Source: Alphaproteobacteria bacterium (GTDB lineage Bacteria > Pseudomonadota > Alphaproteobacteria > Bin95). From it: DNA of 64,000 nucleotides. Shown one piece after another: positions 11,267 through 62,250 of the stretch. The stretch lies in contig OZ219785.1 in NCBI GenBank assembly GCA_964291285.2, positions 928,001-992,000 of the forward strand. Reading direction: 5' to 3'. Each line of letters starts with the position of its first letter. The first letter of the stretch is position 1. Made by a program: the position numbers and the translations under genes. The notes below the pieces were generated by a model. The model was given only the letters and a program-made list of their open reading frames with translations, had not been told where the DNA came from and made no database searches.

Positions 11267-12038
11267 AAAAAAATCTAATGAAATTGCTTTTTGTTCGCGT
11301 TTTGAGCTTGACATCTGGCGGATTGTGATATGATGGTCCCCAGGGAAGCGGACTCCGGAGCCGCTTCCCGGGCGTTGCGCGGCCGAGCGGCGCCGGTTTC
11401 TGAAAACATGTGAGAAGCCGACGGGAGGAGTGCGCCCTCTGCCTCGCGCGCGCAATCAGGCGCGCGAACCGCGCCGGCGCCGACACGCGCCCGGGCAGGC
11501 GCGGGCGCCCGCGCAGGATACGCGCGGAAACAGGGACCCGCTCCCGGTCGGAGCAAGGAGGAACGATGACGGCAACCGACCCCCAACTGGCGGCGATGCC
11601 GGCCGAAAGGCTCGCACCCGCCGCCGGCGCCGGCGGCGGCGGCCCGGCGGGTGGTAAAGCCACAGCCCGGGGCTTCTCTCCACTCGTCACCCCGGACGGC
11701 GCGCCAGCGCCGATCCGGGGGCCAGCCTCGGTTCTCGCGGCGGCTCCGGCGGCTGAGCCTGCTCCCCACCGGCTGCGGCGGCATCGGGGGCCATGGATGG
11801 ACCCCGGGAACAAGTCCGGGGTGACGAAAGGGGCCCGATCCGGGGCGACGGACAAGGGCCGTGCAACTGCGCCAGCCCGCAGGCGGGAGGGGAGGGCAAT
11901 GAGCGGAGCGTTATGCCCGGATCGATCATGGAACATGCCCTATACGCATGCCGAACATGACATCTCATGACATTCCATGACACATGGCGGGGGAAGCCGG
12001 GCGCGCCTCATGACGAAACATGACATATCATGACATGT
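11267..12038 (+). repeat. Dispersed intergenic element, copy 1 (promoter, GC-rich hairpin core, CATGAC arrays)
   Basis: 56-bp core 11429-11484 identical to the reverse complement of 39512-39567; CATGAC at 11956, 11966, 11976 and 12009, 12019, 12029. Confidence 0.9.
11307..11334 (+). promoter_or_regulatory. Sigma70-like promoter at the 5' end of element copy 1
   Basis: CTTGACA at 11307-11313 and TATGAT at 11329-11334 (short spacer), with an AT-rich upstream tract. Confidence 0.5.
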
Positions 12039-12097
12039 CCGCCGGACCCTCCGCCTCCGGGCAGCGGGCGCCCGGCCATGCCAGCGAAGGAGCGCGC

Positions 12098-12979
12098 ATG
12101 ACCCCGCCCCCGGAATTCGTTCATGCCGTCGCCGATCTCGGCGAGGTGACGATCCACTATGTCTCGGCCGGCGCGGACCCCGGGAGCGCGCCGCCCGTGG
12201 TGCTGCTGCACGGCTGGCCCGAGACCTGGTTCGAGTGGCGCCATGTCATGCCCCCGATCGCCGAACACCATCCGGTGATCGCGCCGGACCTGCGGGGCCT
12301 CGGCGACTCCTCGCGGCCCGCGGGCGGCTACGACAAGCGAACGGTCGCGGAGGACATATACCGGCTGCTCTCCGAGCGTCTCGGCCTCGGGCGCTGGCAC
12401 ATTGTCGGCCATGACTGGGGCGGCCCGACCGCCTTCGCGCTCGCCGCGAGGCGGCCGGAGGCCGCGGCGAGCCTGACGGTGATCGACGTGGTGATCCCCG
12501 GTGACGGCGGGGATTTCTCGCAGGCCGGGCGGCGCTGGCACCATGCCTTCCACCGCACCCCGGAGCTGCCGGAGGCGCTGGTGGGCGGGCGCGAGGACGT
12601 CTATCTCGGCTGGTTTTACCGGGCCTATTCCGCGCGGCCCGACGCCATAGACGCCGGGGCGCGGGCGGAATATCTGCGCACCTACAGCGACCCGGAGGCG
12701 CTCCGCGCGGGCTTCGCCTACTACCGCAACCTGCCGCAGGACGCGGCCGACAACGCCGCCCTGCTCGCGACCGGCTTCCGGCTGCCCATGCCGGTGCTCG
12801 CCATCGGCGGCGGCAGGACGGACGCCTTCGGGCGCGCCGGCGAGGTCGAGGCGTCGCTGCGCCGGGTGGCGACCGACGTGCGCGGCCTGGTCGCGGAGGA
12901 ATGCGGGCATTTCGTGCCGGAGGAGGACCCGGAGCTCACCGCCCGCGCCATCCTCGACCACATCGCGCGCTCGCCATGA
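12098..12979 (+). CDS. Alpha/beta hydrolase (epoxide hydrolase/haloacetate dehalogenase-like)
   Basis: LLHGWPE, PDLRGLGDS, GHDWGG nucleophile Asp and CGHFVPEE; AAGGAG RBS. Confidence 0.92.
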   Translation: MTPPPEFVHAVADLGEVTIHYVSAGADPGSAPPVVLLHGWPETWFEWRHVMPPIAEHHPVIAPDLRGLGDSSRPAGGYDKRTVAEDIYRLLSERLGLGRWHIVGHDWGGPTAFALAARRPEAAASLTVIDVVIPGDGGDFSQAGRRWHHAFHRTPELPEALVGGREDVYLGWFYRAYSARPDAIDAGARAEYLRTYSDPEALRAGFAYYRNLPQDAADNAALLATGFRLPMPVLAIGGGRTDAFGRAGEVEASLRRVATDVRGLVAEECGHFVPEEDPELTARAILDHIARSP

Positions 12980-59019: not shown

Positions 59020-61662
59020 CTATCCCCCCATCGCCTCGGCAATCGCGGCCAGCGCTTCCGTGGCGCGGGCGCCGTCGGGGCCGCCGGCCTGGGCCATGTC
59101 GGGGCGCCCGCCGCCGCCCTTGCCGCCGAGCGCGGCCGCGCCGAGGCGCACGAGGTCCACGGCGCTGAGCGAGGGGGCGAGGTCGTCGGTGACGCCCACC
59201 ACCAGCGAGGCCTTGCCGTCGTTCACGGCCGCCAGCGCGACGACGCCGCTGCCGATCTGCTGCTTCAGGTCGTCGGCGATGGCTTTCAGTTCCCTGGCCG
59301 GCACGTCCTCCAGCACCTGGCGGCTGAGGCGCCGGCCGCCGATCTCCTCGAAGGCCGGCCCCGCGCCGCCGGTCGCGGCCTTGCGGCGCAGCTCCGCGAT
59401 CTCGCGCTCCATGCGCCGGCGCTCCTCCAGAAGCTGCGCCACGCGCGCCGGCACCTCGCCGGGCGCGGTGCGGAGTTCCGCGGCCGCGGCGTCGAGCAGC
59501 CCCAGCCGCTCGGCGACATGGGCCGCCGCACCCTCGCCGGTCAGCGCCTCGATGCGGCGCACGCCGGCGGCGAGCGCGGTCTCCTCGACGATGACGAACT
59601 GGCCGATGTCGCCCGTCTGCGCCACATGCGTGCCGCCGCAGAGCTCGACCGACCAGGACCGGCCCCCGCCGTCCGCGCCGCCCATCGTCACCACGCGCAC
59701 CTCCTCGCCGTATTTCTCGCCGAAGAGCGCGAGCGCGCCGGCCTCAATGGCGTCGTCCGTGGCCATGAGACGGGTGGAGACGGGCGAATTCAGCCGGACC
59801 CGCTCGTTCACCGCCGCGCCGACCGCCGCGATCTCGTCGGCCGCCATCGGCTTCGGGTGCGAGATGTCGAAGCGCAGCCGGTCGGGCGCCACCAGCGAGC
59901 CCTTCTGCGCGACATGGGCGCCCAGCGAATCCCGGAGCGCGCGGTGCAGCAGGTGGGTCGCGGAATGGTTGCGCCGGACCGCCGCGCGCCGCCCGCCGTC
60001 CACCCGCAGTTCCACGGCGTCGCCCACCGTGAGTGCGCCTTCTTCCAGCCGCGCGGCATGAACATGCAGGTCGCCGAGCTTCTTCTGCGTGTCGGTCACG
60101 GCAAGCGTTGCCCCGCCCGGAACCGCCATGGCCCCGCTGTCGCCGACCTGCCCGCCGGACTCGCCGTAGAAGGGCGTCTGGTTCACGATGACCAGGACCT
60201 CGCCGCCGGCCTCCTCGAAGCGCTCGACCTCCTCGCCGCCCGCGACCAGCGCCAGCACTTCGGCTTCCGCCGCCAGCGTCTCGTAGCCGAGGAACTCCGT
60301 CGCGCCGAGGCGCTCGCGGAAATCGAACCAGAGGGTCTCGGCCGCCGCTTCGCCGGAGCCGGCCCAGGCCTTGCGGGCCTCGGCGCGCGCGCGCTCCATC
60401 TCCGCCTCGAAGCCCGCCTCGTCCACGCCGCGCCCGCGGCCCCTGAGCACGTCGCGCGTGAGGTCCAACGGGAAGCCGTAAGTGTCGTAGAGCCGGAAGG
60501 CGACCGCGCCCGGCAGCGCCTCGCCGCCGCCCAGGTCCGCCTCCGCCTCGTCGAGCAGCCGGAGGCCGCGCCCGAGCGTCTGCTTGAAGCGCTCTTCCTC
60601 CAGCCTGAGCGTCTCTGAAATGAGCGCGCTCGCCTGCCCGAGCTCCGGGAAGGCCCCGCCCATCTCGCGCACCAGCACCGGGGCGATCCGGTGCAAGAGC
60701 GGCTCGCGGCAGCCGATGATGTGGGCGTGGCGCATGGCGCGGCGCATGATCCGGCGCAGCACATAGCCCCGGCCCTCGTTCGCCGGCAGCACGCCGTCGG
60801 CGATCAGGAAGCCCGAGGCGCGCAGATGGTCGGCGATCACCCGGTGCGAGACGGCATGCGGGCCGTCCGCATCCACGCCGGATGCCTCGGCGGAAGCCAG
60901 GATCAGCGCCCGCATCAGGTCGATGTCGTAATTGTCGTGCTTGCCCTGCAGCACGGCGGCGAGCCGCTCCAGCCCCATGCCGGTGTCGATGGAGGGGCTG
61001 GGCAGCGCGATGCGCTCCTCCGGCGTCACCTGCTCGAACTGCATGAAGACCAGGTTCCAGATCTCGATGAACCGGTCGCCGTCCTCGTCCGGGCTGCCGG
61101 GCGGGCCGCCGGGAATATGCTCGCCGTGGTCGTAGAAGATTTCCGAACAGGGACCGCAGGGGCCGGTATCGCCCATCGCCCAGAAATTGTCCGAGGTCGG
61201 GATGCGCAGGATGCGGCTCTCGGGCAGGCCGGCGATCTTGCCCCAGAGGCCCGCCGCCTCGTCGTCCTCGGCATAGACGGTGACCAGCAGGCGGTCCGCC
61301 GGCAGGCCGTATTCGCGCGTCACCAGGTTCCAGGCGAGCTCGATGGCGAGGTCCTTGAAGTAGTCGCCGAAGGAGAAATTGCCCAGCATCTCGAAGAAGG
61401 TGTGGTGGCGGGCGGTGTAGCCGACATTCTCGAGGTCGTTGTGCTTGCCGCCGGCGCGCACGCATTTCTGCGAGGTGACGGCGCGGTTGCAGGACCGCCG
61501 CTCGCTGCCGGTGAAGACGTTCTTGAACTGCACCATGCCCGCATTGGTGAACATGAGCGTCGGATCGTTGCGCGGCACCAGCGGGCCGGACGAGACGATC
61601 TCATGCCCGTGCCGGGCGAAGTAATCGAGAAAGGCCGTGCGGATTTCGCTCGCGCTCGCCAT
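59020..61662 (-). CDS. alaS: Alanine-tRNA ligase
   Basis: [42 protein letters not shown] and GGKGGG. Confidence 0.98.
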
Positions 61663-61784
61663 GCGTCGCAATCCTCCGGGCGGATGCGGGGAAGACGGGT
61701 TTGTATCGGCAGGGCCGGCGGCTGTCCACAGGCGGCGGCGGTCGCCCGCCCGCCCGGCGCGCCTGCGGAGGGGCCCGCTCCGGC

Positions 61785-62250
61785 GATGTGTCATGAAGTG
61801 TCATGAAGTGTCATGCGATGTCATGATCTGCATGCTCAGGCGTCATATCCTGTGTCCGTTTCGGGCATGGAGTCGGTCGCTTCGGGCGGAGGCTCCCGGT
61901 ATTCGGCCCGGTTTTCCGGTCCATGCGTCTTCGGCATGGGTTTCCCGCCTATAATCCCGGTTCGTTCCATCTCGCCGGCGCGCCGCCGCCCCGAGCGGCG
62001 GGACCCTAATTCGCGCGTATCCTGCGCGGGCGCCTGCGCCTGCCTGCGCGCGTCTCGCGGCGGCGCGAATCGCGCGCCTGATTGCCCGCGCGCGGGCGCG
62101 CGCGGGGACCCGGCAGAGGCCCGTCGCGCCCGGGAAGCCTTCCCCCGACGCGAAGCAGGGGACGAAGCCGTTTCCTTCCATCCGCTCTATATTGGTGCGG
62201 ACCTCTCATATTCAACTCGTGTGAAAGAATTATTTCATATTTCTTGAACA
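61785..62250 (-). repeat. Dispersed intergenic element, copy 3
   Basis: Core GCAATCAGGCGCGCGATTCGCGCC...GCGCAGGATACGCGCG; GTCATG at 61790, 61800, 61810 and 61820; AT-rich 5' end with TTGAAT...CAATAT. Confidence 0.88.

Follow-up and report, generated by a model that had tools for sequence, protein, structure and literature searches.

The 64,000-nt window analyzed here (G000:C1:928001-992000) lies in an alphaproteobacterial genome, G000, of 6.13 Mb with 68% guanine plus cytosine (G+C) on five contigs. It harbors three copies of a dispersed element, located 5' of a hydrolase gene (copy 1), hutU (copy 2), and alaS (copy 3). These copies are members of a genus-restricted family of roughly a hundred intergenic cassettes, whose full-length members encode either a small-terminase-like protein of 329 amino acids (aa) or an unrelated type-2 protein. 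The initial annotation of the window recognized the three copies but overlooked both kinds of protein-coding member. Judged by their sequence, copies 1 to 3 are cargo-less, decayed representatives of the family, and the reading that we favor, with a confidence slightly above even, is that the protein of the intact members binds the CATGACA arrays at the cassette ends. The features are as follows.

11229..12038, plus strand: copy 1, whole element; type-2 cargo lineage, decayed, with a nested foreign repeat
11308..11334, plus strand: promoter-like block of copy 1; TTGACA, 15 nt, TATGAT, with a TG one base 5' of the -10 hexamer and an AT-rich tract upstream
11343..11369, plus strand: hairpin 1 of copy 1; GGGAAGCGG / CCGCTTCCC, at the start of the predicted transcript
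11416..11565, plus strand: GC-rich leader core of copy 1, including the 56-bp run 11429-11484 common to copy 2
11555..11970, plus strand: ribosome-binding site AAGGAGGA of copy 1, ATG at 11566, and open frame of 134 codons
11684..11827, plus strand: nested small repeat of unrelated sequence within copy 1; its ends, 11684-11697 and 11814-11827, are perfect inverted repeats of 14 bp
11956..12038, plus strand: decamer arrays of copy 1; three units (11956-11985), a GC-rich spacer, three units (12009-12038)
39244..39730, minus strand: copy 2, whole element; short form without cargo
39660..39687, minus strand: promoter-like block of copy 2; TTGACA (39687-39682), 16 nt, TATATG (39665-39660)
39625..39653, minus strand: hairpin 1 of copy 2; GGAGAAGCGG / CCGTTTCTCC, differing from copy 1 in ways that preserve pairing
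39512..39567, minus strand: part of the copy 2 core identical to copy 1
39313..39408, minus strand: conserved start of copy 2 (ribosome-binding site, ATGCCG) and frame of 31 codons, with its stop within the first array
39244..39317, minus strand: decamer arrays of copy 2; two units (39317-39298) and three units (39273-39244)
61786..62250, minus strand: copy 3, whole element; short form, the most diverged, with all paralogs at or below about 80% identity
62186..62215, minus strand: promoter-like block of copy 3; TTGAAT, 18 nt, TATAGA
61990..62120, minus strand: GC-rich core of copy 3; GCAATCAGGCGCGCGATTCGCGCC ... GATACGCGCG ... AGGGTCCCGC
61836..61937, minus strand: conserved start of copy 3 (ATG at 61937-61935) and frame of 33 codons
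61786..61825, minus strand: decamer array of copy 3; four units

A MAFFT alignment of the three copies (818 columns, mean column identity of 62%) bears out the positions and the single order of parts that had been proposed for them. Each copy opens with an AT-rich tract in which a -35-like and a -10-like box are found; a hairpin comes next, then the GC-rich core, a middle that varies between copies, and the CATGACA repeats. Copy 1 had been located correctly, but its repeated part begins near 11229, about 40 bp before the start first given (11267). The 56 bp reported to be identical between copies 1 and 2 are exact at 11429-11484 of copy 1. The core follows the pattern GCAATCAGGCGCGCG..CGCGCC ... 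GATACGCGCG ... AGGG(T/A)CCCGC in all three copies, and its GGCGCG/CGCGCC stem, described earlier as conserved with a varying loop (CGAAC or CGATT), is present in each of them and hardly varies across 92 distinct genome copies. As had been stated, the three copies have no open frame across the core in common; a different one is closed in each. The long middle of copy 1 is the nested, unrelated small repeat, and the stretch around it (positions 419-600 of copy 1) has 46 matches elsewhere in the genome. This small repeat also occurs in the congener G003, which is devoid of cassettes.

The expectation of many more copies genome-wide proved right. A 151-nt core query (BLAST, E ≤ 1e-4) recovered 96 cores, distributed over all five contigs of G000, and a search for at least two ATGACA units at a spacing of 9 to 12 bp recovered 164 arrays, 134 of which have a same-strand core no more than 1.7 kb upstream, while 30 are solitary. 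The phased CATGAC repeats noted at first are decamers of the form C-ATGACA-t-n-y (CATGACAnnn), with a spacing of exactly 10 bp in 255 of 260 cases. Only three of the 164 arrays fall inside called genes (the gene calls being crude), so the arrays are almost all intergenic, and the cassettes range in size from 0.45 to 1.5 kb. The core is present in 14 of 16 genomes of the same genus, and 14 genomes of other genera yielded just two matches (E of about 7e-4). A degenerate 24-nt core pattern, run against one genome per species of 185,579 species, hit at least 111 stretches; among the matches listed, all are in records named "MAG: Alphaproteobacteria bacterium" except for one Bryobacterales contig. 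Copy 2 has no match among 72,556 plasmids, and full-text literature searches found no published description of such a family. Arrays of three units number 98 in G011, in which the 329-aa gene is present, 7 in G008, where cores are present but the gene has no match, and 0 in three congeners devoid of both core and gene (G001, G003, and G013); a reversed-pattern control gave 0 in all five genomes. Contigs of relatives begin or end within cassettes. Two other associations of the repeats were considered and rejected. PhoB boxes are direct repeats of TGTCAT with an 11-bp period; a Pho-box reading of the reverse strand disagrees with the 10-bp period and with the absence of triple arrays from the three cassette-less congeners. 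A link to low-GC islands, examined because of the defense-type neighbors of copies 1 and 2, was not borne out either, with 7 of 83 elements in such islands against 8.9% of intergenic gaps (Fisher p = 1).

About a dozen copies have 1.0 to 1.1 kb between the core and the array that follows it, and ten of these encode an intact 329-aa frame, which starts with MP(V/I)I(D/E)P and ends with HDKT-stop inside the array. Residues 11-71 of the protein match the Pfam family Terminase_2 (PF03592) with 45.2 bits at a cut-off of 26.1, and a match to the PHROG family phrog_51 has an E value of 9.9e-13. All 12 Terminase_2 matches in G000 are in solitary cassettes, and public records label such genes "MAG: terminase small subunit." A HMMER search with the protein retrieved 930 relatives, the distant ones of which (33 to 45% identity, 120 to 300 aa) align to residues ~5-120 only. 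Seven matches in 50,697 phage records, annotated as "terminase small subunit," are confined to residues 7-97, and three loci in 2.9 million viral contigs (34% identity) to residues 9-77; neither collection contains a close relative. The AlphaFold model, based on an alignment of 63 sequences, is confident at residues 11-110 (pLDDT of >87) and 146-199, where it has two long helices (52-106 and 146-199), whereas the acidic tail is modeled poorly. In Foldseek, it comes closest to the small terminase of phage SF6 (3zqq) and the DNA-binding domain of the latter (2cmp/4zc3), with a target TM score of 0.82, a root mean square deviation (rmsd) of 0.8 to 2.1 Å, and 39 to 40% identity over ~50 residues. 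According to profile and predicted fold, the N-terminal ~60 residues are thus a helix-turn-helix DNA-binding domain of the small-terminase type (SF6 G1P).

The ratio of nonsynonymous to synonymous divergence (dN/dS) among nine intact copies is 0.36 overall, 0.18 for residues 1-120, and 0.44 beyond, and the gene is under purifying selection. It is intact and multi-copy in 12 of the 16 congeners, with identities of 91 to 100% within G000 and 68 to 84% between species. This selection, the broad occurrence in the genus, the almost exclusively intergenic arrays, and the stress-type operator described below would also suit a host-domesticated protein with an architectural or regulatory role on the chromosome, for which the ~160 arrays would be genome-wide sites maintained for the benefit of the host. 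We regard such a role as very unlikely, since three same-genus congeners lack gene, core, and arrays, which makes the system dispensable, since copies come and go between close relatives, and since ten near-identical genes that change faster than the flanking genes bear the marks of a selfish repeat. Outside the genus, G385, a member of another family, has four copies of a 49 to 55% identical gene at contig ends, each with its own TTGACA promoter and a short leader and without a CATGACA array, so a self-promoted multi-copy gene may be older than leader and arrays. At one of these loci (G385:C11:1-2934; L053), the gene is followed by tandem units of ~36 bp that contain GTCATTCCGACC instead of CATGACA decamers.

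An exact GAAC-N7-GAAC box, such as GAACGCCAGCGGAAC, is located 17 to 20 nt before the start codon in 11 of the 14 copies with a terminase-like start and in none of the 82 others. The whole genome contains 111 exact occurrences on both strands, and the chance of finding one in a 150-nt stretch is 0.0014. Box and start are kept together in four of five congeners tested (3 to 8 places each; reversed-pattern control, 0), where the half-sites are fixed and the spacers vary. GTTCN7GTTC/GAACN7GAAC is given as the alphaproteobacterial LexA site in PMC3091678, and from the presence of this LexA-type box on terminase-type copies, control of the 329-aa gene by DNA damage is predicted. Copies 1 to 3 have no exact box between core and start; an SOS box in their promoter or leader was considered and rejected, the window matches with at most one mismatch being at chance level (33 versus 38 expected). 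Directly after the last decamer of copy 2 and facing hutU lies an exact GTTC-N7-GTTC (GTTCGACCGGTGTTC, 39231-39245, minus strand), which G006 has in the corresponding position (L016:310-324). As the window contains just two exact matches, of which this is one, chance is a possible explanation.

The second cargo was found in six mid-size copies, which encode the type-2 protein of 171 to 218 aa (MT(A/E)TDPRP...), unrelated to the first. It belongs to no Pfam, PHROG, or PADLOC family and gave no lead in the Atlas (best score, 0.83). Fourteen of 16 congeners carry its gene intact and in multiple copies, with a dN/dS of 0.17 to 0.44 among close copies and of 0.62 to 0.76 against a diverged one. In copy 1, a strong ribosome-binding site is followed by what is left of this cargo, its first ~62 nt (78% identity over 62 to 68 nt), after which the nested repeat sets in. 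Its frame of 134 codons agrees with the 218-aa type-2 protein in 11 of 18 residues at the N terminus only, and has no Pfam family. Copies 2 and 3 have no similarity to either cargo beyond the arrays. They share a ribosome-binding site and an ATGCC start with 11 other short copies (13 in total), followed by 31 to 33 codons, but a micropeptide was rejected: pN/pS, the corresponding ratio of polymorphisms, is 0.67 in frame versus 0.60 and 1.15 in the other frames, variation does not peak at the third codon position, and the second half is read in differing frames between copies. Copies 1 to 3 are therefore all treated as gene-less members. The same features would be expected if the three copies, and perhaps the whole family, were inert relics of an extinct element that resemble each other because of recent origin and gene conversion, and the divergence of copy 3 from its positional ortholog (about 72% identity, compared with 96% for alaS) points the same way. 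We give this explanation hardly any weight, given the low dN/dS of the intact genes (0.18 to 0.36), the conservation of the box half-sites amid varied spacers, and a subfamily of more than 90% identity together with insertions private to the G000/G006 lineage, which indicate recent activity.

The initial annotation had seen neither terminal inverted repeats nor target duplications, and this holds. No inverted repeat joins the two ends of copies 1 to 3, and at two sites that are empty in relatives, hutU and alaS, no target duplication was found. At hutU, where G007 has a spacer of 18 bp, G000 has 75 bp, the element, and 108 bp. At alaS, the element of G006 with 24 bp and ~55 bp of extra sequence replaces 52 bp of G007, among them the last codons of a neighboring transporter gene. 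The long forms encode no transposase or recombinase, and neither the 329-aa nor the type-2 protein matches a transposase family. The junctions fit imprecise insertion of a recombination type and not transposition. The first 360 bp of copy 1 are 96% identical to a paralog (G000:C3:216978) and only 89% to the same-site copy in G006, where the flanking gene is 93% identical; paralog identity above ortholog identity fits copying between members. Copies are also located at places where gene order differs between relatives. The suggestion of a non-autonomous mobile promoter cassette came close to the nature of the three copies.

The initial annotation proposed structured noncoding RNAs or long 5' leaders, or mobile promoters, that would drive or regulate the gene downstream, and several observations are in line with it. 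Under a loose rule (a -35 hexamer with at least five of six matches, 15 to 18 nt, and a hexamer with at least four of six matches to TATAAT), a promoter-like block is present in 42 of 96 copies, compared with a mean of 5.8 and a maximum of 12 in shuffled blocks. The TTGA(C/A) -35 and -10-like boxes reported at first hold by this rule for copy 1 (11 of 12 hexamer matches with its 15-nt spacer) and copy 2 but not for copy 3, and a strict sigma-70 scan of 11000-12300 predicted no promoter, so that the block is promoter-like only; a terminator scan of the same stretch, including the sequence after hairpin 2, was negative. Hairpin 1 carries compensatory changes. In 43 diverse copies, 84.3% of cells pair, versus 41 to 67% with the partner slid, 12 cells are changed on both sides, versus 4.9 in shuffles (0 of 500 as high), and the covariation score is 0.189 versus 0.157 (3 of 500 shuffles), the structure having been derived from the same sequences on which pairing was scored. 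All three window copies and 45 of 83 copies genome-wide are aimed at the next gene, and in 10 of 14 congener loci the hydrolase gene is preceded by an element or its array (the leader core at the same place in 8, arrays alone in 2, with subtypes differing between species).

The rest of the leader agrees less well with a structured RNA. Across 92 copies, the core stems have no covariation, just C-to-U changes that preserve G-U pairs; single-sequence folds (z of -1.59, -1.92, and +1.10) are no better than shuffles and not distinctive in GC-rich DNA; and RNAalifold on the MAFFT alignments returned the invariant core stems only and missed hairpin 1. The core may equally well be a protein-binding DNA site. 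Rfam gave no match at the gathering score in the window and none at E ≤ 1 on copy 2 and two long copies. Metatranscriptome contigs (X22 and X23) over 59000-63700 show a peak of 387 in the core bin in X22, which is matched by a multi-copy peak in DNA runs (724 in X4 and 3576 in X1) and so speaks neither for nor against transcription, and no RNA contig in X22 or X23 bridges copy 3 and alaS. The leader ends in signals for a cargo of the element itself, namely its ribosome-binding site and its start codon.

The genomic surroundings argue in the same direction. Gene calls were rough (codon-position G+C plus long frames in low-GC DNA), and orientation was scored for the 83 of 96 copies in which an array within 1.5 kb sets the 3' end, the other 13 being dropped. 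The next gene downstream is co-directional in 45 and convergent in 38 of these, and the upstream gene is co-directional in 53 and divergent in 30. Pointing into a gene, as had been claimed for each copy, is hence not a rule; orientation is near random genome-wide, which is the outcome that the initial annotation itself had named as refuting. At hutU, the element is present in one of nine congener loci (G006) and absent from eight, including G007 with a 99% identical hutU; at alaS, it is present in one of 13 (G006) and absent from 12. A promoter-like TGGACA-15-GATACA at 61702-61728 (minus strand), between the element position and alaS, is conserved in all 13 congener loci, so alaS retains a promoter-like site of its own. 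Copies 1 to 3 should not be taken for regulators dedicated to hutU, alaS, or the hydrolase gene, and we consider a family of leaders or mobile promoters for downstream genes improbable.

The interpretation that we prefer starts from a cassette in which a promoter-like block and a conserved leader are followed by a start codon with its ribosome-binding site and by CATGACAnnn arrays. Its 329-aa protein would dock on the 10-bp-phased units in cis and in trans, probably as an oligomer with DNA-binding domains one DNA turn apart, as in SF6 G1P, and its gene would be switched on by DNA damage. Short copies such as 1 to 3 would be passive docking sites that depend on roughly ten intact copies, recombination, in the form of illegitimate joins and of copying from one member to another, would generate new copies without a transposase, and hutU, alaS, or the hydrolase gene would be affected, if at all, by incidental read-through from the element promoter. 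We infer the binding of the protein to the arrays from the adjacency of gene and array, the one-turn spacing, and array counts that follow the presence of the gene; the mode of spread is likewise inferred. According to PMC4737164, the small terminase of SF6/SPP1 has adjacent helix-turn-helix motifs about one DNA turn apart, and direct-repeat sets of the SPP1 pac site span promoters and the start of the terminase gene. The cassettes resemble this system in the sequence and fold of the N-terminal helix-turn-helix and in a gene with its own promoter beside sets of short direct repeats; by analogy, their one-turn repeat spacing would fit a ring of DNA-binding domains. They differ in that no phage surrounds them, no large terminase adjoins them, and about 100 dispersed copies exist, most of them without the gene. 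G1P has ~140 to 160 aa, whereas the cassette protein has 329 aa with a long acidic tail and matches the profile at positions 2-62 only. Finally, the SPP1 pac repeats lie across the gene start, and the cassette repeats at the 3' end of the gene.

Several points weigh against this interpretation. The Terminase_2 match covers only those 61 of the 141 profile positions, the 329-aa model has no Foldseek match at E ≤ 0.001, and the superposition on full-length 3zqq_C gives an rmsd of 9.3 Å over 135 columns, so the oligomerization part of a terminase is unconfirmed by profile or fold. The case for binding draws on array counts from five related genomes and on analogy. The second cargo is equally widespread and has no DNA-binding signature, and copies 2 and 3 may descend from a separate short lineage rather than from gene deletion. 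The LexA-type box lies ~230 nt downstream of the promoter-like block, which is odd for a repressor. In addition, no TerL_ATPase match exists in the G000 genome, no large terminase is found next to the 329-aa gene or travels with the family, and the sole TerL-like gene of G000 (C2:89782-91365), which belongs to a phage remnant and is separated by 13 kb from the nearest cassette, has relatives in just 3 of 16 congeners. As it does not co-occur with the cassettes, this gene was rejected as the helper large terminase. The remnant itself (G000:C2:85332-91365; L041 9833-15866) comprises genes for a portal, an HK97-type capsid, an HNH endonuclease, and the TerL-nuclease-like protein; no small terminase lies beside it, and a terminase-type cassette (C2:75868-77287) is located at 8.5 to 13 kb.

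In a different account, the cassettes would be parasites of DNA packaging. A unit of small terminase and pac site would recruit the large terminase of a phage or gene transfer agent after DNA damage, headful packaging would start from the arrays, including those of gene-less copies, and new copies would form when packaged ends recombine. Such a damage-inducible small-terminase gene with a docking array would represent a new class of selfish element, containing nothing else, that would have itself and its neighboring genes transduced to other cells from about a hundred sites. The terminase-type DNA-binding domain, the gene beside repeats as in SPP1/SF6 pac, the LexA-type box here and in four of five other species, as expected for timing with prophage induction, the insertions that lack precise ends and show additional unique flanks and small deletions, and the copies at places of altered gene order would all be accommodated. 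With no co-occurring large terminase and no close relative of the protein in the viral contigs and phage records, however, we hold this account to be possible but rather unlikely, and array binding by the protein, with spread by recombination, remains the explanation that we prefer.

Other known systems share single traits with the cassettes. SaPI/PICI islands redirect helper-phage packaging to their own pac site by means of their own small terminase; they are single-copy islands of 10 to 15 kb with an integrase, replication genes, and att sites. The cassettes are likewise chromosomal non-phage elements with a small terminase, a recognition site, and a plausible SOS-linked timing, but at 0.45 to 1.5 kb and about 100 copies they have none of those genes or att sites. 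Like the Correia elements of Neisseria and other MITEs (miniature inverted-repeat transposable elements), they occur in many short intergenic copies, some of which can direct a promoter toward a neighbor, and short forms outnumber long ones; unlike these, they have no terminal inverted repeats, no target duplication at the two sites, and no transposase. Integron cassettes with attC sites also combine conserved ends with exchangeable cargo, here at least two unrelated proteins. The cassettes of this family are dispersed, have their own promoter-like block and leader, and end in direct repeats rather than in an imperfect palindrome, and no integrase was seen beside them. The tests for a derivative of a MITE or insertion sequence, for an Rfam RNA, and for a prophage packaging module all came out negative, and none of the described kinds of repeat or mobile element accommodates the family, integron cassettes being set apart by their general definition.

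The surroundings of the three copies are themselves variable. Upstream of copy 1, a 143-bp direct repeat (7700-7842 and 11095-11236; 89.5% identical) encloses a stretch of low GC content (G+C as low as 44%) with a gene for a 595-aa AAA_21/AAA_15 ATPase (9050-10837) that matches defense models of the OLD/Gabija/AbiL type. This stretch resembles an inserted island that ends just before copy 1, and four congeners likewise have the 143-bp unit upstream of the hydrolase gene. Next to copy 2, a low-GC gene with a PIN_12 domain (39854-41044, minus strand) is flanked by two copies (39807-39825 and 41222-41240) of the 19 nt with which the upstream gene ends (CTGTTCTACCGCTTCTGAG). In the close relative G007, the PIN_12 gene and copy 2 are both missing (2,088 bp). 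On the 5' side of copy 3, near 62263, G000 has lost a transporter-like gene of ~1.16 kb, with a 4-nt microhomology at the join; in G006, this gene sits between the FAD-oxidoreductase gene and the element, and it occupies the same place in G007. At the spot of copy 3, G007 (L021, G007:C3:4142800-4145600) and several congeners have a coiled-coil gene of ~340 bp, flanked by a direct repeat of ~30 bp of the alaS promoter-like region. With either copy 3 or the coiled-coil gene at one spot, the site upstream of alaS takes different inserts.

For annotation, about a hundred "intergenic" stretches per genome and the lone "terminase small subunit" genes are to be seen as one unit. If the proposed interpretation is true, the cassettes would represent a mobile or self-copying element that is built on a phage DNA-recognition protein and spreads without a recombinase of its own, and the family would account for a visible share of the intergenic DNA in a whole bacterial genus. 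It would also explain why the assemblies of these genomes break at cassettes, and it would offer a testable route for the packaging and exchange of chromosomal DNA in uncultured symbiont populations.

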